Assembly: GCA_048538215.1 (NCBI GenBank)
Contig: JBLYPV010000001.1
Coordinates: 11,495 to 75,494 of the forward strand
From: Patescibacteria group bacterium
GTDB lineage: Bacteria > Patescibacteriota > Minisyncoccia > Phycocordibacterales > GCA-2747955
DNA length: 64,000 bases
Direction of reading: 5' to 3'
Below, in pieces: positions 5,561 to 62,038 of this stretch. Position 1 is the stretch's first letter. Every line of letters starts with the position of its first letter. A model generated the notes under the pieces. The model was given only the letters and a program-made list of their open reading frames with translations, was not told where the DNA came from and did not search any database. The position numbers and the translations under genes were made by a program.

Positions 5561-5774
5561 TGGGGGAAGTAGGGGGAGTCGGTACCAGGTTGCAAAGCGT
5601 CGCTTGCGCTCGCTAAGCACCTCCTACCCGGCCTCGGCTTGCAAGGCACATGGCCGACCGAGTGCCTTGCATATGCCTCCGTCTTTCGATTCCCCACGCA
5701 GGCAAAGCAGTTTATCTGCTCCACTTTCACTAATAAAAATAGCCCCACTATCGTGGAGCTTATTTTTATACTAG

Positions 5775-6214
5775 TGGAAGTGGGGGGAATCGAACCCCCG
5801 TCCACATACGGATATCTCGTGCACATCTACGAATGCTAGTTTATTTATTATCTCAAGATAATTGAGAGCTTCACGCTAGTGTCTATAAAATAAACTAAAC
5901 GATACTAGAGCTAGTCGTAATTTATTTTATATAGAGATCACGACACTTCTCTATACTATCCTTCTTATCTCACAATAGAGGGGGAATGAAGGAATATTCA
6001 CCCGTTCTACCGCCAAGTACGCTCGGGAGTATAAATGCTCAACCGACGGCTTACGCCATTGCGTATACTGGAGCGAGAGAAGCGTATGGGCTAGCCATAG
6101 CTCCTTTCACTTTTGCGACTACGTTTGCACGTAAAAAGTATGGGCCTTTTACAGATCTGCCCAATCTACATCGCATACACGGATATGTTCGTATTGTCAA
6201 AGCCGGTCACTCCC
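5775..6214 (-). ncRNA. ssrA: tmRNA (SsrA), ~440 nt
   Basis: The minus-strand 3' end …GGACGGGGGUUCGAUUCCCCCCACUUCCA matches the canonical tmRNA TΨC arm and acceptor end (compare E. coli GGACGCGGGUUCAACUCCCGCCAGCUCCACCA). The 5' GGGAGUG pairs with the 3' CACUUCC to form the acceptor stem. An internal tag ORF starts at resume codon GCA (…GCA AAA GUG … UAC GCA AUG GCG UAA) and ends …VYAMA*. CCA is not encoded. It is antisense to the spurious ORF 5986..6225. Confidence 0.8.
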
Positions 6215-8783: not shown

Positions 8784-9245
8784 TTAACGGAAGCGCACTT
8801 TATGCTCACGAAGTACATCTCGCTCCTGATCTCGCTCTTTGATATCTTCGCGCTTGTCGTGCTTTTTCTTTCCACGCACGAGTGCTAGTTCGAGCTTAAT
8901 TTTGCCATTTGCACGACCAATGGCTTTGGGGACAAGAGTAATTCCTTTATTATGTACGGCTTTTTGAATCTCAATAATTTCTTTTTTGTTTAGCAAAAGT
9001 ATGCGATCACGACGAGGATTACTACTAGGAGAATTTGCCACCTGGTAAGGGGGGATATGGAATTCACGCAGGAGGATAGTATATCTACCCGCTTCTTCTT
9101 GCACGGTGATGTACGCCCCATCCATTGATGGGGTATTTGTTTGTAGAGATTTCGCTTCATCCCCAAGAAGGGAGATGCCCGCCATGTAAGTATCGAGCAC
9201 TTCATAGGAATGATGGAGCTTTTTGTTGCGAGCTACTACTTGCAT
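8784..9245 (-). CDS. smpB: SsrA-binding protein SmpB
   Basis: HSYEVLDTYMAGISLLGDEAKSL…NPRRDRILLLNKKEI…IKLELALVRGKKKHDKRE matches SmpB. It lies ~2.6 kb from the tmRNA. Confidence 0.85.
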   Translation of the reverse strand: MQVVARNKKLHHSYEVLDTYMAGISLLGDEAKSLQTNTPSMDGAYITVQEEAGRYTILLREFHIPPYQVANSPSSNPRRDRILLLNKKEIIEIQKAVHNKGITLVPKAIGRANGKIKLELALVRGKKKHDKREDIKERDQERDVLREHKVRFR

Positions 9246-31752: not shown

Positions 31753-32295
31753 ATGCAATTCTCTAATCCTGATCAAATTCTTGCAAATGTAGGCATCTCT
31801 CCTGGGTCAGTAGTAGTAGATTTTGGGGCCGGAAGTGGATTCTATAGTATAGCAGCCGCACGACTCGTGGGCTCTGGTGGTCGAGTGTATGCTATCGATA
31901 TTCAACACGCCTTACTTGAGCGCCTCAAAGAAGCTGCACATAGTGAAGGGCTCTCTCAGCTTGATACGGTATGGGGGGACATCGAGACTTATGGCGGTAC
32001 TCGTCTGCGTGATGGTACTGCTGATGTGGTCATTTGTGCAAATATTCTTTTCCAGCTTGAAAATCGAAGGGCTGGGATAGATGAAGCCAAACGGCTCTTG
32101 CATCCAAGTGGTCGGATGCTTGTCATTGATTGGGATGATAGCCATTTTGGTATGGGCCCAGATCCATCACTAATCATTACTAGAGATGAGGCGGTGGAGC
32201 TATTGGAGTCACAAGGTTTAGTAGTCGAATCGGACACACCCGCAGGGGATCATCACTGGGGGCTTATCCTACGCCACGCACATAATACTGTATGA
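31753..32295 (+). CDS. Class I SAM-dependent methyltransferase (180 aa)
   Basis: Motif I VVDFGAGSGFYS and a Methyltransf_11-like layout. Confidence 0.6.
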   Translation: MQFSNPDQILANVGISPGSVVVDFGAGSGFYSIAAARLVGSGGRVYAIDIQHALLERLKEAAHSEGLSQLDTVWGDIETYGGTRLRDGTADVVICANILFQLENRRAGIDEAKRLLHPSGRMLVIDWDDSHFGMGPDPSLIITRDEAVELLESQGLVVESDTPAGDHHWGLILRHAHNTV

Positions 32296-33608
32296 ATACA
32301 AACAAACGATTTTCTATCTTCCAAATAGCTATGATAGCCATCTTTGGCTTACTTGCTCTTGCGGGAGTGGTAGCATTTGCCACCTATCGAGCTCCCGAGC
32401 CGGCTTCGATGATAGGTAAGGTGGATATTTGGGGCACCTATGATGCAGATATGTTTAATCGCTACTTACGAGAGCTCAAAGAGCAAGATGAATCGCTCAA
32501 GAAAGTATCCTATCGTGAGCTTGATCCCTCAGATTTTAGACAAGATGTATTAGAGGCAATGGCGAGTGGAAATTCTCCTGATTTACTTTTTATCCCTGAG
32601 TACGTCCTGTATCCATATCTCGACAAGATAGTGACCATCCCCTCAAGTTCGTATTCTCGTAGTGATTTTATTAATAATTTTGTAGATGCAAGTGAGATTT
32701 ATTTTCAAAATGATGGAATCGTGGGACTGCCATTAGCAGTGGATCCCTTGGTGGTCTATTGGAATAGAGATATCTTTGCTTCAGCTGGGGTGCCACGCCC
32801 GCCATCAAGCTGGACAGAATATTTTTCTCTCGCTCAAAAGCTTTCTCAGGTAGATGAGAGCTTGAGTATCAAGCAGTCGGCTATTGCTCTGGGAGAAAGT
32901 GATAATATCAATTATTTTCGTGAAATTATGGCTACTTTGATTCTTCAAATTGGTAACCCAATTATTAGCCGAGACGAAGATGGTAGATTGCGAGCACAGC
33001 TTGAGGGAGATCGTGATACAGAGTCGGCTCAAGCGGCTGTTCGATTCTTTACTGAGTTTTCAAATGCATCCAAGGCAGCCTACTCTTGGAATCGCTCTAT
33101 GCCTACAAGTAGAGATGCTTTTTTGGCAGGTGATTTGGCAATCTATCTAGCTCCTATCTCGGATATATTTTCTATACGTGTTGCTAATCCTAATCTTAAT
33201 TTTGCTATTGCTGAGATCCCATCAGTGGATACCACCATTTCTCGTCGCAAGGCAGTGTACGCTACTTTGTATGGATTTGTCATTCCGAAAGTATCAGACA
33301 ATAGAGGCGGGGCTTATCAAGCAGCTATAGCACTAACAAGTGATCAAGGAGTGCGTACATTTACCGGAATCACTGGTCTAGGCCCTGCTCGACGAGATCA
33401 AACAGCTGAAAGCTCGGAGGAGGCTTATCGTGATATTGTGAAGAGAGAAGCGCTCTATGCTCAGACCTTTCTCGATCCTCAGTATCAAAGTACCCAGCAA
33501 GTATTAGCCGATATGGTGGAGTATGTGACGAGTGGACAGCGATCAATCAGCAATGCCTTATATGTGTCCAACGCAGCCTTACGGACGGTAATTAATAATG
33601 CAAAGTAA
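32292..33608 (+). CDS. Membrane-anchored extracellular solute-binding protein (ABC-type, family 1)
   Basis: N-terminal TM anchor, then an SBP_bac_1-like core (…DLLFIPEYVLYPYLDKIV…AVDPLVVYWNRDIF…). No permease or ATPase gene is adjacent. Confidence 0.55.
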   Translation: MNTNKRFSIFQIAMIAIFGLLALAGVVAFATYRAPEPASMIGKVDIWGTYDADMFNRYLRELKEQDESLKKVSYRELDPSDFRQDVLEAMASGNSPDLLFIPEYVLYPYLDKIVTIPSSSYSRSDFINNFVDASEIYFQNDGIVGLPLAVDPLVVYWNRDIFASAGVPRPPSSWTEYFSLAQKLSQVDESLSIKQSAIALGESDNINYFREIMATLILQIGNPIISRDEDGRLRAQLEGDRDTESAQAAVRFFTEFSNASKAAYSWNRSMPTSRDAFLAGDLAIYLAPISDIFSIRVANPNLNFAIAEIPSVDTTISRRKAVYATLYGFVIPKVSDNRGGAYQAAIALTSDQGVRTFTGITGLGPARRDQTAESSEEAYRDIVKREALYAQTFLDPQYQSTQQVLADMVEYVTSGQRSISNALYVSNAALRTVINNAK

Positions 33609-35157
33609 TATGAAAATTATGAATAATCAAAAAATAGCAATTTTACACCATAATAAGTATTTATTTTTGATTAATAATTACTTATTATTATCTATAGCGC
33701 TTATGGTAATGGTATCTATCGTTGCGTTACCAAAAAGTTTATACGCAGATGTCTCTTCAGAAAATACTACGAATCAGGAGGTTGATTATCATGAGGTGGT
33801 TCCCGCATTAGATGATTACTTTTGGTCTTGGGATATTTTACCGAGTGAGGTTGATAAAGATGACCTGGATACATTTCTAGAAAATGGGATCTCTGGAGAT
33901 CAAATCGGAGTTGTCAAGAAACAATTATTGCCTATTAAGCCAGCTTCATATACGGGTACTCTAACGTCATATATGATGAGTCAGTGTTTATTAGAAAAGT
34001 CTCAATATCCCTCTGCTGGAAATTGTTATATAGCTTGCACAAGAACAGCAACTGATAGTGATTGGGTGTCTGGATCACAGTGCGAAGGGAAGTCTCCGAA
34101 AGGGTATTATTTTTTTTATGTTGAATCATTAGGATCAAGAGTCGTAGTAGAAGATACATTAATTGGACAGGCGGGAGCGAATCTTGCATCTTATATTATA
34201 GATAATGAAGTTGAGGCAAAATGTTTTAAAGACGATTTAAGTACTGGTAAAACTGCTCGTGAGCAATGCGAAGAAGCTATGGCTCCTTATAAAGACTGGA
34301 TTCCAGAAACTACAAATTCAATGAGTGATAATTTCGCTGGCACTGGTTGGGATTGGTTTGATAATCTCACTACAATTGTAAGACCATTTTCAAGCTCAGT
34401 TTCTTTTCGGTGTACTGAATTGGGCGAAGATAATTTTTTTAATAATTACGATGTTGGAGATTATTGCTTTAATTATGCAGCTAGAAATTCTGATGCACGT
34501 ATTGATATTAATGTGGGCACAGGAGATACCTGCTTTTATAGCGAAGATAGATGTATTCTTACAGTGGCGACTGCATATGCAGGACTAGTTATTGTAAATG
34601 AAGACGGAGAGGAAATCCCAGTTAACCGTACAATTAGAAATTCAGATTATTGTCGAGCAGATAAAGACGATGCAGGCAGGGAGGTATATTGTATGAATGA
34701 CAGGGGTATTCCTATCCAGAATGCAAATCCGATCAATGAAGCATTATACCAAGACCAGTATGAACAGTGGCAAGCTCAAGTGCAAGCACATACTGCTGCT
34801 GTGGACGCCTATGAGGCTGCTGGTACTCAAGCCTTAAAGGAAGCGGGAGCATTAGTGCCGTGTATGGGGACCGATTGTGGGTGGAAGGAGCTCATTGATT
34901 TAATTAATCGAATTATTCGCTTTATGATCACTATCGCAGCTGTATTGCTAGTGCTTATGATTATCTATGCAGGATTCCAGCTCGTAAGTGCTCGAGGAAA
35001 TGCAGCGGCTCTCACAAAAGCTAAAAGTGCTCTCTGGAAGGCGATTGCAGGCTTTGTTTTAGTGCTCACCGCCTGGCTGATTGTGAATGCGGTAGTGAGC
35101 TTGATTCTCAAAGATGAATTTAAAGATGATCCGAATGTGAATATCTTGAAGAATTAG
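33598..35157 (+). CDS. Large secreted Cys-rich protein (≥24 Cys) with a C-terminal two-helix TrbC/VirB2-like pilin module
   Basis: An N-terminal signal/TM is followed by a ~380-aa Cys-rich ectodomain. The last ~80 aa (IIRFMITIAAVLLVLMIIYAGFQLVSARGNAAALTKAKSALWKAIAGFVLVLTAWLIVNAVVSLIL) have the same helix-loop-helix layout as the six downstream small proteins. Confidence 0.6.
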   Translation: MQSNMKIMNNQKIAILHHNKYLFLINNYLLLSIALMVMVSIVALPKSLYADVSSENTTNQEVDYHEVVPALDDYFWSWDILPSEVDKDDLDTFLENGISGDQIGVVKKQLLPIKPASYTGTLTSYMMSQCLLEKSQYPSAGNCYIACTRTATDSDWVSGSQCEGKSPKGYYFFYVESLGSRVVVEDTLIGQAGANLASYIIDNEVEAKCFKDDLSTGKTAREQCEEAMAPYKDWIPETTNSMSDNFAGTGWDWFDNLTTIVRPFSSSVSFRCTELGEDNFFNNYDVGDYCFNYAARNSDARIDINVGTGDTCFYSEDRCILTVATAYAGLVIVNEDGEEIPVNRTIRNSDYCRADKDDAGREVYCMNDRGIPIQNANPINEALYQDQYEQWQAQVQAHTAAVDAYEAAGTQALKEAGALVPCMGTDCGWKELIDLINRIIRFMITIAAVLLVLMIIYAGFQLVSARGNAAALTKAKSALWKAIAGFVLVLTAWLIVNAVVSLILKDEFKDDPNVNILKN

Positions 35158-35211: not shown

Positions 35212-35583
35212 ATGAAATACTTATCCTTGCTCGTTAGTCGATCAAAATATACCGCCCTACTATTTTTCTTGTCTGTTGCTTTAGTGCATGCAGAAGGAGG
35301 AGACGGTACACTCATCAATCCTTTGGCTGGTGATATGACACTGATGCAATTTGTCACCTTTTTGGTGCGTGATGTTTTGGTAGGGATAATTGCTCCTATT
35401 GTACTCACCCTTGCGCTTCTTTATACTGGCTTTATGTTTATCTCCGCTCAAGGAAATCCTAGCAAACTCCAAGATGCTCAGCGTAATTTTGTTTATGTCA
35501 TCGTGGGAGGAATTTTACTTCTCGGAGCATATGTGATTCTTGCGGTGATTACCAATACGGTCGATCAGCTCACGGTAAATTAA
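35212..35583 (+). CDS. TrbC/VirB2-like pilin candidate 1 (Sec signal peptide + two hydrophobic helices)
   Basis: Signal peptide …ALVHA|EGG. The mature ~95 aa has two TM helices split by a short polar loop (YTGFMFISAQGNPSK) and a WG/GxxxG-rich helix 2. This is the VirB2/TrbC architecture. Confidence 0.55.
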   Translation: MKYLSLLVSRSKYTALLFFLSVALVHAEGGDGTLINPLAGDMTLMQFVTFLVRDVLVGIIAPIVLTLALLYTGFMFISAQGNPSKLQDAQRNFVYVIVGGILLLGAYVILAVITNTVDQLTVN

Positions 35584-35593
35584 TGATTATTGT

Positions 35594-35890
35594 ATGCGTA
35601 CATTATATTACTTCATACTTCTAACACTTCCTACTCTAGCTTTTGCTCAAACTTTCAAGAGCTTGGTAGATGATCTTGTTTTTATCATCAATGCCTCCAT
35701 CGGAATAATAGTGGCTTTGTCTGTAGCAGTATTTTTTTACGGGATGGCAATGTATGTGTTTCGTATGGGATCAGGATCTACTGAGGGTCATACAGGTGGC
35801 TATAATTTGATGATGTGGGGGATTTTGATTTTTTTCGTGATGGCCTCAGTGTGGGGGATTGTCAATTTGGTAGCTGGAAGCTTTTTCTAA
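35594..35890 (+). CDS. TrbC/VirB2-like pilin candidate 2
   Basis: Signal peptide …LAFA|QT. FFYGMAMYVFRMGSGS loop; LMMWG…SVWGIVNL in helix 2. Confidence 0.55.
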   Translation: MRTLYYFILLTLPTLAFAQTFKSLVDDLVFIINASIGIIVALSVAVFFYGMAMYVFRMGSGSTEGHTGGYNLMMWGILIFFVMASVWGIVNLVAGSFF

Positions 35891-35909
35891 AGAAATAGAT
35901 AATACTAGT

Positions 35910-36281
35910 ATGAAATATGCACCTAAAATTACTATCTATTCGATGCTCGTCCTCGGAGGCACTATACCTCACCTAGCCTATGGGTATAGAATAGACAATG
36001 TATATTCTTTGTTTATTCTTCTTGATTATCTGATAGTACTGGCAGTGCAAATTGCTTTTGCGCTGGCGGTGGTGGCTTTTTTCTATGGATTGGCTCTCTA
36101 TATTTTTAAGTCAGGCAATCATAGTGCTAATGCGCAGGGGATTCGACTTATGCTCTGGGGGGTCGTGGCACTTTTTGTGATGGTTTCAATTTGGGGGATA
36201 GTGATAATCCTACAAGATTCTTTTGGAGTGGATAATAGAGATACACCACGCTACCCCCAGCTACACATCAGGGGGCGCTAA
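35910..36281 (+). CDS. TrbC/VirB2-like pilin candidate 3
   Basis: Same architecture. FFYGLALYIFKSGNHS loop; LMLWGVVALFVMVSIWGIV. Confidence 0.55.
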   Translation: MKYAPKITIYSMLVLGGTIPHLAYGYRIDNVYSLFILLDYLIVLAVQIAFALAVVAFFYGLALYIFKSGNHSANAQGIRLMLWGVVALFVMVSIWGIVIILQDSFGVDNRDTPRYPQLHIRGR

Positions 36282-36415
36282 CTTTATCTAAAGGGACAAG
36301 ACGATGTGCATTTGTCCCAATGATACTTGTGGATAGCGCACTTCCACTTCAAGGAGAGCTTGGTATGATACAAATATACTTATAAATATAGTAGATAACA
36401 ATAAATGATAACAAT

Positions 36416-36772
36416 ATGAAACAAATAGTAATTTCAGGCCTTGCCTTAGCTCTACCTTTTCTTGCTTTAGCACAAAATGCTGAAGGGAAAGGCCTTGGTG
36501 GAGTACTTGATAGCATTGGAAAATTGCTCGATCTCGCCATCGGCCTCCTCTTTGCTCTCGCCGTCCTCGCCTTTTTCTACGGCTTGGCAATCTACATATT
36601 CAAATCAGGAAAAGAGAAGCAGGAAGGAATCAATATTATGGTAATGGGCACCATTGCACTTTTTGTAATGGCTTCTATTTACGGTATTATTGGATTGCTA
36701 CAGAATAGCTTTGAGGTGACAGGGAGTGAAGAAATAGGTCTCCCTGATCCTACTCTAGGAATAGGAAATTAA
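36416..36772 (+). CDS. TrbC/VirB2-like pilin candidate 4
   Basis: Signal peptide …LALA|QNA. Its core is identical at the DNA level over ~161 bp to candidate 5. Confidence 0.6.
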   Translation: MKQIVISGLALALPFLALAQNAEGKGLGGVLDSIGKLLDLAIGLLFALAVLAFFYGLAIYIFKSGKEKQEGINIMVMGTIALFVMASIYGIIGLLQNSFEVTGSEEIGLPDPTLGIGN

Positions 36773-36816
36773 TTACTTCTTTTAATTTTTAATAAAATAC
36801 GATAATATTCACATAT

Positions 36817-37164
36817 ATGAAATATACAACACTCGGAATTATAAGTTTGGTCGTTCCTTTTTTGGCTTTTGCTCAAGCTAACGGAAGTAGTAATCTTGAA
36901 GGGCTTCTCAAGAGTATAGGAGGATTACTTGATACTGCCATCGGCCTCCTCTTTGCTCTCGCCGTCCTCGCCTTTTTCTACGGCTTGGCAATCTACATAT
37001 TCAAATCAGGAAAAGACAAGCAGGAGGGAATCAATATTATGGTAATGGGCACCATTGCACTTTTTGTAATGGCTTCTATTTACGGTATTATTGGATTATT
37101 GCAAGATAGTTTTAATGTCAAAAAAGATGGTAGCGAAATTACGCTACCTAAAGCACCTAAGTAA
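36817..37164 (+). CDS. TrbC/VirB2-like pilin candidate 5
   Basis: Signal peptide …LAFA|QA. The core 36937-37097 is identical to 36536-36696 apart from one E/D change. Confidence 0.6.
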   Translation: MKYTTLGIISLVVPFLAFAQANGSSNLEGLLKSIGGLLDTAIGLLFALAVLAFFYGLAIYIFKSGKDKQEGINIMVMGTIALFVMASIYGIIGLLQDSFNVKKDGSEITLPKAPK

Positions 37165-37270
37165 ATAGTTAGAAAATCTTATTAGGGTATCATTATAGAT
37201 AAGATTTTATTTTATAAATTAAAATAAAGGATGTTCTTATGTGCCATTGAGATATCAGCAAATCATTTTT

Positions 37271-37615
37271 ATGAAATACCACACAGCATTTCTATTTTTC
37301 TTACCCGCGGTAGTTTTTGCTGATGCCATCACTATTGATCAAGGCGTGATTCAATTAATTAATAATTTTATAAACGCCATCATCAATCCAATGATTGTCT
37401 TATTGATAGCGGCGGCGCTCTTGCTATTTTTATGGGGGCTATTACGACTCATGATAGATCTATCAAATGGAGGAAAGGGAGAGGAGGGGAAGCGGCATAT
37501 GCTATGGGGGCTTGTGGGCTTGATTGTTATGATTAGTGTTTGGGGGATTATTAATCTCATCGCCAATTCAATCGGAGCAGAAGTATCACAAATAGACGCT
37601 TCTGATAATTTTTAG
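37271..37615 (+). CDS. TrbC/VirB2-like pilin candidate 6 (start probably at MKYHTAFL; the ORF track starts at 37241)
   Basis: Signal peptide …VVFA|DA. Two helices with a charged loop (SNGGKGEEGKRH); MLWGLVGLIVMISVWGIINL. Confidence 0.5.
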   Translation: MKYHTAFLFFLPAVVFADAITIDQGVIQLINNFINAIINPMIVLLIAAALLLFLWGLLRLMIDLSNGGKGEEGKRHMLWGLVGLIVMISVWGIINLIANSIGAEVSQIDASDNF

Positions 37616-37807: not shown

Positions 37808-38380
37808 ATGAAAAGTACCGGCATCGGAGCTTCATTTATTCCCAAGGAGGAAGTACGAGCAAAAGGATCACGCCACACCCCTCTCGCTTCTAATCTATTT
37901 TTATTGATTGGGATTGTGGTATTCCTTGCAGCTCTTTTGGCTTCACTTGGAATCTTTTTGTGGCACGGACAGCTCGAATCAGCCAATGCTCGTGCCCTGC
38001 AAACTCTTGAGAAAAACCGTGAGAATTACGGCATCTCTGCTATTGAGGAATTTATTGATATTAATAATCGTATTCAAGCTGCAGACCAAATTCTCTCCCA
38101 GCATATCTCTGTAGCTCCCATCTTTGCTATGCTGGAGCTTGATACCCTTACGGATATATATCTTCAAGATTTTAGCTTTACCACTGAGGGGAATGAGGTT
38201 TTGATATCTGCTCGAGGATTTGCCCCTACCTATGCTCATGTGGCTTTGCAGGCAGATCAGTATAGTGACAATAATCTTATTAAGGATTTAATTCTATCAG
38301 GGGTGAATCAGGCCCGAGAAGGTGGCATCCAATTTGATGTGAGCTTTGTGGTCGATCGAGATATTTTAATCGTAAATTAA
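37808..38380 (+). CDS. PilN-like bitopic membrane protein (TM + coiled coil + alpha/beta domain)
   Basis: A short cytoplasmic N-terminus and one TM (LFLLIGIVVFLAALLASLGIFLW) are followed by a periplasmic coiled coil. Its size and topology fit the PilN/GspL-periplasmic class. The assignment rests on architecture only. Confidence 0.4.
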   Translation: MKSTGIGASFIPKEEVRAKGSRHTPLASNLFLLIGIVVFLAALLASLGIFLWHGQLESANARALQTLEKNRENYGISAIEEFIDINNRIQAADQILSQHISVAPIFAMLELDTLTDIYLQDFSFTTEGNEVLISARGFAPTYAHVALQADQYSDNNLIKDLILSGVNQAREGGIQFDVSFVVDRDILIVN

Positions 38381-38386
38381 TATTAT

Positions 38387-38941
38387 ATGCAATTAATCGC
38401 TCCCATTATTCTCATACTTATCTCTGGCGGTCTCTTTGTGACTTGGATTGACCCTCAATACCAAGAAATCAAAGATCTACAGCTCGAAAAAGCTCGATAT
38501 GACGAAGCACTTGATCGAGTGGTAGAAATCCGTGAGGCACGAAATCAGATTCAATCACGCTACAATACAATTGAAGACCAAGATTTAGATCGACTGGGTA
38601 AGATGATACCTTCGCATATTGATAATATTCGTTTGATTCTTGATGTAAATAGTGTAGCCAATGCCCGGCAAATGACTATCCGTGATATTAGGATTAACCT
38701 TAATGAAGATAGTTCACCAGGAGCTAAAATATCTGTTGGCAACCAAGGCGCACACAAGAGTGTAGGCTTTCGTTTTACGGTAGTCACTACCTATGAAAAT
38801 TTCAAGAAATTTCTTGATGACTTAGCTCTTTCATTGCGTATTATCGATGTAGAATCGGTTGAGATTAGTAGTATTCAAGATGAAACCAGCTTTTATCGTT
38901 TCGATGTGGGTATCCGTACCTACTGGCTTCCCCAAGAGTAA
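38387..38941 (+). CDS. PilO-like bitopic membrane protein
   Basis: An N-terminal TM is followed by a coiled coil (QYQEIKDLQLEKARYDEALDRVVEIREARNQ) and a ferredoxin-like C-terminus. The assignment rests on architecture only. Confidence 0.4.
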   Translation: MQLIAPIILILISGGLFVTWIDPQYQEIKDLQLEKARYDEALDRVVEIREARNQIQSRYNTIEDQDLDRLGKMIPSHIDNIRLILDVNSVANARQMTIRDIRINLNEDSSPGAKISVGNQGAHKSVGFRFTVVTTYENFKKFLDDLALSLRIIDVESVEISSIQDETSFYRFDVGIRTYWLPQE

Positions 38942-38953
38942 TAAATACACATT

Positions 38954-39385
38954 ATGAATCAAATCAAACAACTCGTATCTCAATACAAAAATATCCTTAT
39001 CGGTGGGGTGGTGGTCGTTGGTGTGTTAGTTGGCTATAATATTTTTTATCTTACCCCTAAAAAAGAAGCTCAGCAGGCGGGGGCGATACGATCAGAAAAT
39101 CAAAACCTTATCTCTAGCGAGATTGGTCGCGAGATTGTGGCTACTCTTAATCGTCTTAAAAGCTTGAATATCGATCCAGATTTCTTTCTTGAAGAGCGAT
39201 TCCAGCGCTTAATGGATTTCTCTGTAGAAATCAAAGAGCAACCAGTGGGTAAAAATAATCCCTTTAGCCGGGTTAATTTAATTGGGAGTGCTCAAGCTGA
39301 AGTAGAGGGAGTGTCTGCACTTGAAGACGCAGTAGAAGTCAATCCTGATACAGATACGCCGGATCTTTCAGGTCCTGGTATCTAA
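38954..39385 (+). CDS. Small bitopic membrane protein of the pilus cluster (PilP-like?)
   Basis: N-terminal TM, a 143-aa acidic C-terminus. Confidence 0.3.
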   Translation: MNQIKQLVSQYKNILIGGVVVVGVLVGYNIFYLTPKKEAQQAGAIRSENQNLISSEIGREIVATLNRLKSLNIDPDFFLEERFQRLMDFSVEIKEQPVGKNNPFSRVNLIGSAQAEVEGVSALEDAVEVNPDTDTPDLSGPGI

Positions 39386-39439
39386 GGGGAGGATGAGAGC
39401 TTGTTGGCTATATGCCAAGATATAACTATATAATAAGAT

Positions 39440-41164
39440 ATGTCACTTGTTTCATACTTAGTACAAGAAAGAATAATAGATGAAATGGATGCTACGCGTA
39501 TCGAAGAAGATGCACAAACAAAAGGTAGCTCTATTGATGAGGCGGTAATTGATGCTGGGGTAGATCCAGATGTGCTTTTTACTGCTAAACAAAAATTTTT
39601 TTCTGACTACGAAGTACGTTATCAGGAGAGTAAGGATATGGTGCCACCAGAAGTGCTTGAATATGTGCCAGAAAATTCTGCTCGGCTCTATGGCTTTGTG
39701 CCTCTAGCAATACGCGATGGAGATATACTCGAAGTAGGTATTCTTGACCCAGATAATCTATCTGCCAAATCTGCTCTCGAATTTATCGCCGGGGCGGAAG
39801 GGATTTCTTATGAACTATATCTTATCTCTTATGATTATTATAGTTTTATTATTGAAAATTATTCAGGGCTTAAAGGTGAGGTACAAGAAGCACTGGGGGC
39901 ACTTGAAGCAGAACAGCAATCATATGCAGCTAAGGTTTCAAAAAGAAAAAATTACCAAGATATTGACGAAACAGAGCGAATTACTGAAGATGCTCCTATT
40001 ACCAAGATAGTATCTAATATTCTCAAGCATGCCGCTGAGACTCGTACCTCTGATGTACACATTGAGCCACTTAGTGGACAAACAGATGTTCGCTATCGTA
40101 TAGATGGCTTACTCCAAAAGGATCTCACTCTCCCTAAAAGTATTCATGAAGCTGTCATAGCTCGCATTAAAATACTTTCAAAGATTAAATTAGATGAGAA
40201 GCGTATTCCGCAAGATGGTCGTTTTTCAGCTAAATTACTAGGGCGAAAAATTGATTTTCGTGTTTCTACTTTTCCTACGTATTATGGAGAGAAATGTGTG
40301 ATGCGTTTGTTGGAATCAGATCGAGGGACACTTAATATTCATGAGCTGGGGCTCGTGGGTGAAAATGCAGAAAAAATGAAGCGAATCATTACAAAGCCCT
40401 ATGGAATTATTCTTGTTTGTGGCCCCACTGGATCGGGTAAAACTACTTCTCTATATTCATTCCTTGATGAGCTTGATAAGCAAACAGTAAATGTAGTGTC
40501 ACTCGAAAATCCAATTGAAATGAATATTGAGGGTGTATCACAATCACAAGTGCGTCCTGATATCGGCTATACTTTTGCCAATGGTTTGCGATCGGTCTTG
40601 CGTCAAGACCCCGACATTATTATGGTCGGTGAAATTCGTGATACCGAGACAGCTCAATTGGCTATCCAAGCAGCGCTTACTGGGCATCTTGTTTTTTCTA
40701 CCATTCACACCAACACAGCATCCGATGTAGTGCAACGATTAGTTGATATGGGGGTAGAGCAGTATTTGATAGGACCAACTATCGTAGCAGCAATTGGGCA
40801 ACGATTGGTGCGTACCATTGCCCCCAACTCAGGCAAAGAAGTACCAATGAGCCCAGCGGTACGAGAGATGATTCGGCATCAAATTTCTGATTTACCAAAA
40901 GAGGTACAAGCACAATTTACCTCTCAAGATACAATGTATGAGGCTGTGCCAAGCGATGCCTATCCCACAGGAGAGAGTGGACGAATTGGCGTATTTGAAA
41001 TTCTCGAAATGAATCCAGAGCTCGAACGCTTGGTGCTCAAAGATCCAAGTAGTCGGGCTATATATGATGAAGCTCGCAAGCACGGCTTCATCACTTTTAA
41101 AGAAGACGCTATTCTCAAGGCCTTGGAGGGTAGGATTACTTTTGAACAAGTAATGAAACTATAA
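39440..41164 (+). CDS. pilB: Type IV pilus/T2SS assembly ATPase (PilB/GspE family) with an N-terminal GspE_N domain
   Basis: Walker A (VCGPTGSGKTTS), Asp box, His box, Walker B (DIIMVGEIRD), and the N-terminal T2SSE_N-like domain. Confidence 0.85.
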   Translation: MSLVSYLVQERIIDEMDATRIEEDAQTKGSSIDEAVIDAGVDPDVLFTAKQKFFSDYEVRYQESKDMVPPEVLEYVPENSARLYGFVPLAIRDGDILEVGILDPDNLSAKSALEFIAGAEGISYELYLISYDYYSFIIENYSGLKGEVQEALGALEAEQQSYAAKVSKRKNYQDIDETERITEDAPITKIVSNILKHAAETRTSDVHIEPLSGQTDVRYRIDGLLQKDLTLPKSIHEAVIARIKILSKIKLDEKRIPQDGRFSAKLLGRKIDFRVSTFPTYYGEKCVMRLLESDRGTLNIHELGLVGENAEKMKRIITKPYGIILVCGPTGSGKTTSLYSFLDELDKQTVNVVSLENPIEMNIEGVSQSQVRPDIGYTFANGLRSVLRQDPDIIMVGEIRDTETAQLAIQAALTGHLVFSTIHTNTASDVVQRLVDMGVEQYLIGPTIVAAIGQRLVRTIAPNSGKEVPMSPAVREMIRHQISDLPKEVQAQFTSQDTMYEAVPSDAYPTGESGRIGVFEILEMNPELERLVLKDPSSRAIYDEARKHGFITFKEDAILKALEGRITFEQVMKL

Positions 41165-41330
41165 AATCTAGGCATCCTGTCTAATTTTCGATTACGTACA
41201 AATTTACCACTAAGAAGTATACTAGAGTATTAGTTTGCGAGCTACCACCTCACTAGTCACTAGTTTTACCAGCTCGTCTGTCCCCAATATTTTTCTTTAT
41301 TAATTATCACTTCTCTATTACAATACAATT

Positions 41331-42389
41331 ATGGACATGAAAGAAGAGTTGAAAAAATTAATTCAAATTGTCGTCTCAGAAGAGGCATCAGATCTTCATC
41401 TTTCGGAAGGGCGCTATCCTACTATTCGAGTATCTGGAGCGCTCATACCGATTACTAAAAGCCGAGAATTATCTGAAGAAGATTTATCTATACTTTTGAA
41501 TTTAATACTCACCCCTGATCAGCGCGAACGATTTATTGCTAATAAAGAGATGGATTTTGCTTTTGAAGCGGGGGGAGTACGCTTTCGTGGCAATGCTTAC
41601 TATCAACAAGGAGATGTCTCTATCGCCTTACGACAAATTAATAATAAAGTAAGCTCTCTTGAAGAGCTTGGATTGCCTAGCATACTCGAAACATTTGCAA
41701 AAAAAGAACAAGGATTTTTCTTAGTGGTAGGGCCTACTGGGCATGGCAAATCTACTACGCTCGCTACTTTAATTGATATTATCAATCAGAGTCGTACAGA
41801 ACACATCGTGACAATTGAAGACCCAGTTGAATTTTTGTTTGAACAAAAGCAGTCTATTATAGATCAACGAGAAGTAGGATTTGATACAAGGAATTTTTCA
41901 GCAGCACTCAGAAGTGCATTCCGACAAGATATTGATGTTTTGATGATAGGAGAGATGCGTGGCCCAGAGACAATGGAGACGGCCATTACCGCTGCTGAGA
42001 CGGGGCACTTAGTATTCTCCACTCTCCATACTAATACCGCTTCACAGACAATCGATCGTATTATCGATACCTTTAGCGGGGATAAGCAAAAACAAATCCG
42101 TACTCAGCTCTCGAGCTCGCTTATGGGAATTTTTTCTCAACGACTCATTCCTTCGGTATCAGGAGGGCGGGTACCTGCCTACGAGCTTTTGATCAATACT
42201 CCTGCTGTTTCCAATTTGATTCGAGAAGGAAGAATTCATGAGATTGATTCTTTTATTGAGACATCTTCACAACACGGTATGATTTCTCTCAATCGGTCGC
42301 TTGCTACCCTTGTGCGTGAGGGGGAGATTTCAGTAGAAGATGCATATCGTTATTCTCCTCAGAGTAAGAATCTAGATCGCTTGCTCTAA
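41331..42389 (+). CDS. pilT: Twitching-motility/retraction ATPase (PilT family)
   Basis: 352 aa. Walker A (VVGPTGHGKSTT), DVLMIGEMRG, GHLVFSTLHTNTA. Confidence 0.8.
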   Translation: MDMKEELKKLIQIVVSEEASDLHLSEGRYPTIRVSGALIPITKSRELSEEDLSILLNLILTPDQRERFIANKEMDFAFEAGGVRFRGNAYYQQGDVSIALRQINNKVSSLEELGLPSILETFAKKEQGFFLVVGPTGHGKSTTLATLIDIINQSRTEHIVTIEDPVEFLFEQKQSIIDQREVGFDTRNFSAALRSAFRQDIDVLMIGEMRGPETMETAITAAETGHLVFSTLHTNTASQTIDRIIDTFSGDKQKQIRTQLSSSLMGIFSQRLIPSVSGGRVPAYELLINTPAVSNLIREGRIHEIDSFIETSSQHGMISLNRSLATLVREGEISVEDAYRYSPQSKNLDRLL

Positions 42390-49452: not shown

Positions 49453-49544
49453 ACTACTTTTTTCTTTGTGCAAAAAATTATTTTAAGAAGTATTACAAGT
49501 AACAACTAGTCGAAATGAAAACTACCTTTTGGTAGTTTTCTTTG

Positions 49545-49618
49545 TGCGAATGCCAGGATTCGAACCTGGGACCTCATCATTATCAGTGATGCGCTCTAAC
49601 CAACTGAGCTACACTCGC
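49545..49618 (-). tRNA. tRNA-Ile (anticodon GAU)
   Basis: Minus-strand read GCGAGUGUAGCUCAGUUGGUUAGAGCGCAUCACUGAUAAUGAUGAGGUCCCAGGUUCGAAUCCUGGCAUUCGCA gives a cloverleaf with a 7-bp acceptor stem, D-loop GUUGGUUAG, anticodon loop CUGAUAA and a T-loop UUCGAAU. CCA is not encoded. The hairpin at 49516-49540 downstream on the minus strand is a likely terminator. Confidence 0.85.
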
Positions 49619-61795: not shown

Positions 61796-61866
61796 TGCCA
61801 GATCGTCTAATGGTAGGACGACCGGTTCTGGTCCGGTTAATCTAGGTTCGAGTCCTAGTCTGGCAG
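61796..61866 (+). tRNA. tRNA-Gln (anticodon CUG)
   Basis: UGCCAGA U CGUC UAAUGGUAG GACG ACCGG UUCUGGU CCGGU UAAU CUAGG UUCGAGU CCUAG UCUGGCA G. All stems pair, the anticodon loop is UUCUGGU, and CCA is not encoded. Confidence 0.8.
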
Positions 61867-62038
61867 CAAAAATAATATCATTGCATGAGTTTGTAAATGG
61901 CTCCCGTCTGGTAGCTTGTAGCAAAGCAAAAACACTCTAGTGAGTGTTTTTGCTTTGGAGATGTTGACCTTTGCCAACATCTCAGTGCTTATAACTTGAT
62001 CATTCTCTAATCAGATAAGCCCTCTATAATTTAGAGTA

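Follow-up and report, generated by a model that had tools for sequence, protein, structure and literature searches.

A PF18895-type pilin module joined to a large, fast-diverging Cys-rich passenger at the head of a pilin array in Patescibacteria

Arrays of VirB2-like pilin genes have a wide distribution in Patescibacteria, and in Southlakia, the only species studied by genetics, they are essential (PMC12102498, PMC10633639, PMC12857230). A T4SS adhesin is not known from the phylum, and adhesins of the PrgB type are reported to be absent from Patescibacteria (PMC12102498). In a 64-kb stretch of DNA from an uncultured, ultra-small Patescibacteria bacterium, called the window in the following, the first gene of such an array encodes a large Cys-rich region ahead of a pilin-like end. 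This raises the question whether the two parts form one genuine protein, whether the C-terminal part is a pilin at all, and what a subunit with such a passenger may do for the cell. All features described here lie on the forward strand (+).

In its longest form, the open reading frame extends from 33598 to 35157 and encodes 519 aa, as described in the first-pass annotation; six small ORFs with two helices each follow it. The ATG at 33610 is probably the true start codon (33610–35157, 515 aa), because all three orthologous genes begin 1 nt after the stop codon of an upstream solute-binding protein (SBP) gene, with the conserved junction TAA/TAG-T-ATG at the three loci. An identical protein in the 515-aa form is deposited at NCBI (MFW0870877.1, "MAG: pilin [Patescibacteria group bacterium]"). 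Residue numbers throughout refer to the 519-aa form. The first-pass annotation had also raised the possibility that two ORFs were joined by a sequencing or assembly artefact; a frameshift fusion, or no real gene at all, would belong to the same alternative. No supporting evidence for this was found, and its probability is negligible: the same uninterrupted two-part ORF is present in the NCBI MAG, in ENA contig ERZ10759774 NODE_73549 and in JGI data, where three samples each yielded one contig with it, the Cys framework is conserved across the orthologs, and synteny is conserved as well. Since the ORF is continuous in three independent assemblies, the fusion is not an artefact, and joining passenger and pilin is a genuine gene architecture.

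From the N- to the C-terminus, the protein consists of a signal peptide, an acidic head of about 240 aa, a base of about 90 aa carrying a Cys framework, a helical stalk of about 40 aa, and a mature pilin hairpin. The Sec-type signal peptide (33610–33747) was recognized by hydropathy and sequence from its basic n-region and a hydrophobic core (aa 21–44) within an N-terminal signal or anchor segment at aa ~21–49. It ends in a cleavage-like site, PKSLYA/D, at aa ~50/51, and the orthologs carry canonical AxA/AxG sites (TAFG/Q and AHA/Q), so that cleavage can be predicted. The hydrophobic core is long and could serve as an uncleaved anchor, which counts against the reading preferred below. The variable distal head (aa 51–287; 33748–34458), delimited by profile alignment and tblastn and devoid of Pfam and PDB matches, is acidic and contains seven cysteines (C130, C143, C147, C162, C209, C224, C272). 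The membrane-proximal base (aa 288–377; 34459–34728) was defined by the alignment of the three orthologs and by hhalign; C290, C312, C319, C352, C365 and the motif YCMN(D/N)xGI are invariant in all three. The Q/E/A-rich stalk (aa 378–415; 34729–34842) is supported by ortholog identity and by an AF2 model of aa 375–519 (mean pLDDT 75.6), in which a helix at model residues 4–41 precedes the hairpin. Pfam, HMM, BLASTP and AF2 results together delimit a mature PF18895 pilin of class A, present in full as the C-terminal module (aa 416–519; 34843–35157 including the stop codon). It comprises the pre-helix motif GALVPCMGTDCGW, the pair C422-x4-C427, a helix (aa 428–464), a basic loop of the pattern ARGN...K.K...K with the sequence ARGNAAALTKAKSALWK, a second helix (aa 469–508), and an acidic tail; hydropathy places the hydrophobic parts of the two helices at aa 436–464 and 481–504. 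The pre-helix motif of the small pilins, GxL(I/V)NPLxG, aligns with GALVPCMGTDCG of the fusion.

Thus, a passenger of about 370 aa is placed exactly between a signal peptide and the N-terminus of a mature class-A pilin. TraA, TrbC, VirB2 and other conjugative pilins are first synthesized as long-leader precursors and then processed. The passenger might accordingly be a giant pro-region or a factor released after export, leaving a small pilin and a secreted Cys-rich protein. We regard such processing as very improbable, because the junction is preceded by neither a second hydrophobic segment nor a signal-peptidase context, and because its conserved helix and conserved CxxxxC pair look structural rather than like a cleavage linker. 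In addition, a class-A small pilin is already encoded next door.

The identity of the C-terminal module is supported by several independent searches. Pfam PF18895 (T4SS_pilin) matches aa 434–499 with 36.3 bits (gathering cut-off 26.6; E=6.1e-9), covering profile positions 7–71 of 71, and also matches the ortholog P0002 (28.8 bits). An HMM built from the six small pilins, with the fusion left out, recognizes aa 427–501 with E=4e-10 and no other of the 273 ORFs in the window, and BLASTP aligns the fusion to the first small pilin, wp1, with 30% identity (E=2e-10). In a comparison of the pilins, the module falls into class A together with wp1, l1p1 and l2p1, each the first of its array, and not into class B; the A(R/Q)GN loop as well as the pre-helix motif take part in this likeness. 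The closest small relative found outside the window is the first pilin of a related locus, L002 (59 bits). Like other PF18895 proteins, the fusion has a signal peptide, two hydrophobic helices connected by a short basic loop, and a place in a tandem array whose members are divergent paralogs, but with 515–519 aa it is far from the small single-module size of about 80–190 aa in the described arrays. Hence, the proposal that the C-terminal end is shared with the downstream small proteins holds, and the earlier caveat that the helices could be a generic membrane anchor fails, since they are paralogous to the first class-A small pilin including loop and pre-helix motif. Of the term "VirB2-like", only the part resting on PF18895 membership stands. 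PF04956 (VirB2/TrbC/TraA) has no match in the fusion at E<=1 and reaches E=0.24 in P0002, and fold searches with the hairpin gave generic hairpins and non-specific matches that do not demonstrate likeness to VirB2 or TraA. A search of PDB sequences with the module profile returned spurious GPCR matches only.

The fusion is the first of seven consecutive PF18895-type genes. It is followed by wp1 (35212–35583, 123 aa), the closest paralog of its module in the window, which scores below the cut-offs of both PF18895 (E=5.5e-5) and TrbC PF04956 (E=2e-5; 25.2 bits, cut-off 27.9). Five class-B small pilins follow at 35594–37615, assigned by PF18895 matches and mutual similarity: wp2 (35594–35890), wp3 (35910–36281), wp4 (36416–36772), wp5 (36817–37164) and wp6 (37241–37615). 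A signal peptide and two hydrophobic helices are present in all five, and their PF18895 E-values range from 1.8e-8 (wp6) to 0.68 (wp2). No terminator-like site was found between the array genes; overall, such sites are in slight excess (11 compared with 7.5 expected, sd 2.7), and promoter-like sites are not enriched (27 compared with 33.2 expected from shuffled sequence). Directly downstream of the array, co-oriented pilN-like, pilO, pilB and pilT genes follow. Among window ORFs of at least 123 aa, with a few ORFs of 83–175 aa left out, no VirB4-, VirB6- or VirB8-type Pfam family was detected, and the array has no virB4 neighbor within the 64 kb. In this respect it differs from the usual virB4-linked arrays, although linkage to T4SS core genes such as virB4, found in 1135 of 1948 assemblies, is frequent and not obligatory (PMC12102498).

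The lack of T4SS core genes in the window counts against a role of the fusion in pilus assembly. The PF18895 hairpin could be a mere two-helix anchor of an envelope protein that never polymerizes, and the small pilins may likewise be plain membrane proteins. For a VirB2-type pilus in Patescibacteria, only the "potential" has been reported and none has yet been observed (PMC12857230). Moreover, judged from the published geometry of F- and T-pili, a 37-kDa passenger on every subunit would be hard to fit into a VirB2-type lattice, and the generic hairpins returned by the fold searches would suit an anchor as well. Nevertheless, we consider this explanation somewhat unlikely. With 73% and 56% identity to the orthologs P0002 and P0003, the module is conserved beyond the usual need of an anchor, and the family-specific loop and pre-helix motifs are kept. 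Also, the position at the head of the array is retained in three genomes, and arrays of this family are usually virB4-linked and in Southlakia essential (PMC12102498, PMC10633639).

In contrast to the module, the passenger diverges quickly. Compared with P0002 and P0003, the stalk reaches 53% and 40% identity, and the ectodomain, as far as it can be aligned, 32% and 27%. When a profile of the window protein and P0002 was compared with P0003 by hhalign, an alignment was obtained only from aa 288 on, while the head (aa 47–287) was unalignable. On L004, a related metagenome contig, tblastn with the ectodomain found nothing and the head is unrecognizable, whereas the flanking genes are 63–88% and the small pilins 59–80% identical. 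An additional divergence of the fusion in one lineage only was considered and dropped, because global alignments place the three genomes roughly equidistant from each other. An unalignable head combined with a conserved base, stalk and module fits a receptor-binding protein, and it is solely this evolutionary pattern that points to a possible adhesin function.

At least 24 cysteines had been claimed for the extracellular region; the sequence contains 14, namely 12 in the ectodomain proper and two in the CxxxxC pair just ahead of the pilin helix. The region is Cys-rich nonetheless (3.7%, about 7-fold above a background of 0.51%, which was taken from 43 window genes; binomial P=1.6e-8). P0002 retains every one of the 14, a core of five is common to the three orthologs, and the totals are even in each ortholog (14, 14 and 16). 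Judging from this enrichment, conservation and even number of cysteines, the ectodomain would be extracellular, oxidized and disulfide-bonded.

The ectodomain, described beforehand as lacking a recognizable domain, gave no match to known domains in Pfam, NCBIfam or PDB sequences, and neither internal repeats nor paralogs of it were found in the window. An AF2 model of the full-length protein reached a pLDDT of 41.9, with the ectodomain unusable, and Foldseek returned no match. As no usable model of the ectodomain was obtained (pLDDT 42), neither a fold nor a ligand can be named, and the lack of an identified fold, ligand site or adhesin domain is a point against a binding role. An exhaustive HMMER search with the ectodomain against 1.84 billion (1.84e9) protein representatives recovered three genes only, the fusion, P0002 and P0003; a further match, P0004, was rejected as a low-complexity junk repeat protein. 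Word-index searches returned only P0002 and a single small pilin (P0005) besides the fusion. Protein patterns and a degenerate DNA pattern for IAGFVLVLTAWLIV gave zero matches in genome and metagenome collections. As P0003 stems from JGI samples, these zeros reflect the content of the collections and not absence. With only three known members, the fusion family is no answer that would hold across the phylum, which also counts against the reading preferred below.

The gene neighborhood offers a different clue to the passenger. Upstream lie a methyltransferase gene (31753–32295) and, overlapping it by 4 nt, the gene of a membrane-anchored SBP (32292–33608; Pfam SBP_bac_8, E=4.6e-21), which ends 1 nt before the fusion; the pair spans 31753–33608. 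The methyltransferase-SBP order recurs in L001 (partial), L002 and L004, and in three assemblies the fusion heads the array and follows the SBP gene at the same distance of 1 nt. Given this tight coupling and synteny, which includes L002, the strongly acidic ectodomain (pI ~4.1) without a recognizable adhesin or lectin domain might be an enzyme, a toxin or a nutrient- or metal-capturing device that works with the SBP, the module only localizing it. However, L002 keeps methyltransferase, SBP and pilin array without the fusion, thus the SBP does not need it. Furthermore, enzymes and proteins that bind a fixed ligand do not usually lose all alignable similarity while their neighbors remain so well conserved, and no catalytic or SBP-like family matched. 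A non-adhesive role of this kind therefore appears improbable.

Comparison with known systems shows which parts of this design are familiar. The patescibacterial arrays of Southlakia epibionticum (SEML1_0014-0019) and TM7x ("signal-peptide array") belong to the same Pfam family, PF18895, share the Sec signal peptide, the two-helix hairpin and the tandem layout of 2–11 divergent paralogs, and are likewise chromosomal in a reduced Patescibacteria genome (PMC12102498; PMC10633639; bioRxiv 10.1101/258137). The Southlakia members are shorter than about 190 aa, with PF18895 beginning by residue ~115 at most, whereas in the fusion the whole passenger lies ahead of it. Large Cys-rich extracellular proteins of Peribacteria (CPR) are exported, strain-variable and proposed to serve in attachment (PMC4736985). 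The fusion resembles them in being Cys-rich, variable and, by prediction, exported; they have about 1,655 aa and about 7% Cys, no fusion to a pilin has been reported for them, and no homology to the fusion was detected.

Outside Patescibacteria, pilin modules with functional additions are well known. FimH and PapG combine an N-terminal receptor-binding domain with a C-terminal pilin domain and are built into the fiber as adhesive subunits. By analogy, the fusion would follow the same design logic, but FimH and PapG have Ig-like pilin domains joined by donor-strand exchange in diderms, while the fusion, which belongs to a monoderm, has a hairpin of membrane helices; it showed no Pfam match to fimbrial families and no sequence relation to FimH or PapG. 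Modular type IV pilins, for instance PilB/PilC of Streptococcus sanguinis, and the large minor pilins of T4P and T2SS also carry a functional, often adhesive domain on a pilin module. They share with the fusion the graft of an extra domain onto a minor subunit, a status that is proposed for the fusion, and they differ by a class III signal peptide, an N-terminal module and a C-terminal extra domain, the reverse of the order seen here with a VirB2-type module. The fusion has no class III signal peptide (G/A-F/M-T/S-L-I/V-E) and its PF18895 module is C-terminal, which sets it apart from T4P, and a motif scan found no class III prepilin motif in the 273 window ORFs. With the T4SS tip proteins VirB5/TraC and the PrgB-type adhesins of Gram-positive T4SS, the fusion would share the proposed role, namely to bring a T4SS-type apparatus into contact with the target cell. 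The searches showed no sequence similarity to these two groups, and VirB5 is not a VirB2 paralog.

Taken together, we favor, with a probability of roughly 0.45, the view that the fusion is a modular pilin of VirB2 type (PF18895) and presents a variable binding head at the surface of the cell or of a filament. After export by Sec, the signal peptide would be cleaved and the C-terminal hairpin inserted N-out/C-out, with the basic loop (R466, K473, K475, K481) in the cytoplasm; the charges along the sequence agree with the positive-inside rule. The acidic, disulfide-stabilized ectodomain would remain outside the cell on its helical stalk of about 40 residues. Since a bona fide pilin module, with wp1 as its nearest paralog in the window, serves as anchor, the fusion may join the membrane pool and the assembly of the six downstream small pilins, most likely as a minor subunit or as the one that initiates the structure. 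The head would then be exposed on the surface or at the tip of a pilin-built structure and could mediate contact with the surface of a host cell. In this way the fusion would be a plausible candidate for a host-contact subunit of the pilin arrays. A stronger version, which we consider clearly unlikely, sees in it the first modular VirB2-type pilin, the array being a surface filament or contact organelle whose host specificity is set by a hypervariable disulfide-bonded head on the initiating or tip subunit. In a bolder extension, the array would be serviced in this lineage by the downstream pilN-like, pilO, pilB and pilT products and not by a VirB4 machine.

Pilin arrays of this phylum have been published before; for the large passenger, no description was found in the literature. 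The weight of the find is limited by the rarity of the family (three genes among about 15 billion proteins), by the uncultured state of the organisms and by the lack of a predicted fold. The large ectodomain is a natural tag by which the structure formed by the array could be located with antibodies or cryo-ET. If the favored reading is true, the principle of the modular pilin, known for type IV and chaperone-usher pili, would be extended to pilins of the conjugative type, and the fast-diverging extracellular head on an array pilin gives a concrete and testable hint that these arrays may have a role in host-cell recognition.

The open reading frame at 33598-35157 (+), annotated as encoding a passenger fused to a pilin module, was confirmed in the window, with a product of 519 aa. 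It lies on a Patescibacteria (CPR) chromosome segment of ~41% GC with dense housekeeping genes, nearly all coding on one strand. Starting at residue 5, the fusion protein is identical to MFW0870877.1 (NCBI 'MAG: pilin [Patescibacteria group bacterium]', 622,806-bp contig). At three orthologous loci, a single nucleotide separates the stop codon of an upstream solute-binding protein (SBP) gene from the fusion ATG (TAA/TAG-T-ATG), which points to ATG 33610 as the probable biological start (515 aa); residue numbers here follow the 519-aa form. Two orthologs were found. P0002 (478 aa, 34% identity) is a continuous fusion on ENA contig ERZ10759774 NODE_73549, followed by orthologs of wp1-wp3, three of the six small pilins (wp1-wp6) that lie downstream of the fusion gene in the window. 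P0003 is the same continuous fusion on three JGI metagenome contigs (L004-L006); with its start corrected to L004:9932 it is 431 aa long and has a canonical signal peptide. L004 and the window are collinear between LepA and ribosomal protein S13. An assembly or ORF-fusion artefact, considered in the first-pass annotation, is ruled out by these unbroken ortholog genes. The fusion architecture is firmly established, and the fusion is a real, well-defined feature.

The C-terminal module matched PF18895 (Pfam 'T4SS_pilin', Patescibacterial VirB2-like pilins) with 36.3 bits (curated cut-off 26.6; E=6e-9); all six small downstream ORFs also gave matches to this family, at E values between 1.8e-8 and 0.68. 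An independent HMM, built from the six small pilins alone, matched aa 427-501 of the fusion (E=4e-10); the 266 other ORFs of at least 50 aa in the window, membrane proteins among them, gave no match. By BLASTP, the fusion shares 30% identity with wp1 (35212-35583; E=2e-10). Furthermore, GALVPCMGTDCG of the fusion aligns with the small-pilin pre-helix motif GxL(I/V)NPLxG, and an A(R/Q)GN loop is common to both, so that the similarity reaches past the helices. Together, these results bear out the earlier observation that the fusion ends in the same two-helix module as the small proteins and contradict a generic anchor unrelated to them. A fold search with the module model matched thousands of generic helical hairpins, and a PDB profile search gave spurious GPCR matches only; the putative VirB2/TraA link is therefore based on Pfam family membership and sub-threshold PF04956 matches of the neighbours. 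That the hairpin serves merely as a membrane anchor is the main rival reading, which we consider unlikely.

The cysteine count is 14 (C130, 143, 147, 162, 209, 224, 272, 290, 312, 319, 352, 365, 422 and 427), not at least 24 as first annotated. Nevertheless, cysteine is exceptionally frequent for this genome, at 3.7% in the ectodomain compared with 0.51% across 43 further genes of the window (P=1.6e-8). All 14 are kept in P0002, and the number of cysteines is even in all three fusion proteins (14, 14 and 16), as would suit an extracellular fold in the oxidised state with putative disulfides. Hydropathy shows one N-terminal signal/anchor segment and two hydrophobic C-terminal helices, whose charge distribution obeys the positive-inside rule for a predicted N-out/C-out hairpin. 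Ortholog alignments, together with an AF2 model that proved usable for aa 375-519 (pLDDT 75.6), delimit five segments: a signal peptide (aa ~5-50); an acidic distal head with seven cysteines (aa 51-287), showing large indels relative to P0002 and unalignable with P0003; a conserved base (aa 288-377) with a framework of five invariant cysteines and a YCMN(D/N)xGI motif; a Q/E/A-rich helix (aa 378-415); and the mature pilin (aa 416-519), in which a conserved C-x4-C is followed by a helix (428-464), a basic loop, a second helix (469-508) and an acidic tail.

Identity to P0002 and P0003 was 73% and 56% for the module, 53% and 40% for the stalk, and 32% and 27% for the alignable ectodomain. In hhalign, the alignment with P0003 covers nothing before aa 288, and the ectodomain had no tblastn match in L004. 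Between window and L004, flanking genes share 63-88% and small pilins 59-80% identity, while only the last 156 aa of the fusion can be aligned with its counterpart (49%); by these alignments, the head evolves by far the fastest of all sequences in the neighbourhood. As first noted, the ectodomain has no recognisable domain: those of the window protein, P0002 and P0003 had no match in Pfam, NCBIfam or PDB sequences. Searched exhaustively with HMMER for the ectodomain, 1.84 billion representatives yielded only these three fusion genes and one low-complexity false match. Pattern scans of a metagenome-contig collection gave zero matches, which cannot be read as absence since L004-L006 encode P0003. 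The proposed Foldseek search for adhesin or lectin folds failed: the full-length AF2 model (2-sequence alignment) was unusable (pLDDT 41.9), and its matches were noise, so that neither a fold nor a lectin or enzyme site can be assigned.

Pairwise scores split the pilins into class A (wp1 and its orthologs, the fusion module and the first pilin of L002, a more distantly related locus) and class B (wp2-wp6 and relatives). L002 carries five small pilins directly after the methyltransferase-SBP gene pair, without a fusion gene, and its first pilin (P0005) is the module's closest small relative found outside the window (59 bits). In the simplest history, a class-A pilin was duplicated and a passenger was gained after the signal peptide, ahead of the mature N-terminus; loss of the fusion in the L002 lineage is a conceivable alternative. 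That the fusion protein is a processed precursor seems very improbable. The C-x4-C of the module occupies the site of a C-x6-C pair (NCGDGQLCNPLAGD) right before the pre-helix motif in the first small pilin of the related locus L001 (1611-1979), and wp1 has no Cys pair there; among class-A pilins, a putative small disulfide loop at the start of the mature protein seems to be gained and lost. Also, wp4 (36416-36772) and wp5 (36817-37164) are a lineage-specific tandem duplicate. Their nucleotide identity is 76% overall and perfect over an 80-nt run spanning the hydrophobic core, suggestive of a recent duplication or of gene conversion; L004 has one gene in their place.

The array is always immediately preceded by a methyltransferase gene and a membrane-anchored SBP gene (SBP_bac_8/SBP_bac_1; window 31753-33608, L002 3946-5782, L004 8066-9930), which overlap by 4 nt, the SBP gene stopping 1 nt short of the fusion gene. 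The pair is kept in L002 despite the missing fusion, and no ABC permease or ATPase gene adjoins the SBP gene. For the fusion, a non-adhesive role linked to the SBP appears improbable, more so than a mere anchor. Downstream of the array, the same strand carries a pilN-like gene (190 aa, no Pfam match), pilO, an unknown gene (143 aa), pilB and pilT (37808-42389), an order kept in L004 and not in L002; this may be mere adjacency in a compact genome. In L004 (15087-16756), the ortholog of the 574-aa PilB ATPase is split into adjacent ORFs of 268 and 287 aa, either by frameshift/pseudogenisation or by sequencing error. Neither a type IV prepilin motif, pilC or pilD nor a VirB4, VirB6 or VirB8-type gene was found within the 64-kb window. 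Elsewhere, phosphoketolase (XFP) adjoins acetate kinase (61-2990), a compact fermentative ATP-yielding pair; a tmRNA gene near smpB (region 5772-6214 and 8784-9245, (-)) matched Rfam RF00023 (87 bits) and was not called by ARAGORN; tRNA genes are Ile-GAT (49544-49618) and Gln-CTG (61796-61867).

VirB2-like pilins occur in tandem arrays of 2-11 divergent members in 383 Patescibacteria assemblies, and the same survey detected no PrgB-like adhesin in the phylum (PMC12102498). In Southlakia epibionticum, an array of this kind is essential (PMC10633639); there, the PF18895 match begins by residue ~115 at the latest. We found no description of a large passenger on a PF18895 or VirB2 module in the open-access literature; the fusion is a modular, passenger-bearing form, new among known Patescibacterial VirB2-like pilins. 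In design it is akin to FimH/PapG, in which a binding domain is joined to a pilin domain, and to modular type IV pilins, but it has none of the features defining membership of either. Cys-rich, strain-variable extracellular proteins were proposed for attachment in CPR bacteria (PMC4736985). The variable head, the conserved base, stalk and pilin module and the place at the head of the array are most consistent with a recognition subunit displayed on the surface, which would co-assemble with the small pilins. We assign this reading a probability of about 45%; a place at the tip or as a minor subunit is its least secure element. The function is inferred from the evolutionary pattern only. Reviews treat a Patescibacterial pilus as a possibility only (PMC12857230) and the role of the T4SS as 'completely unknown' (PMC11665869). 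The weight of the fusion is limited by its very rare lineage, but it gives a testable handle on what the pilin arrays do.
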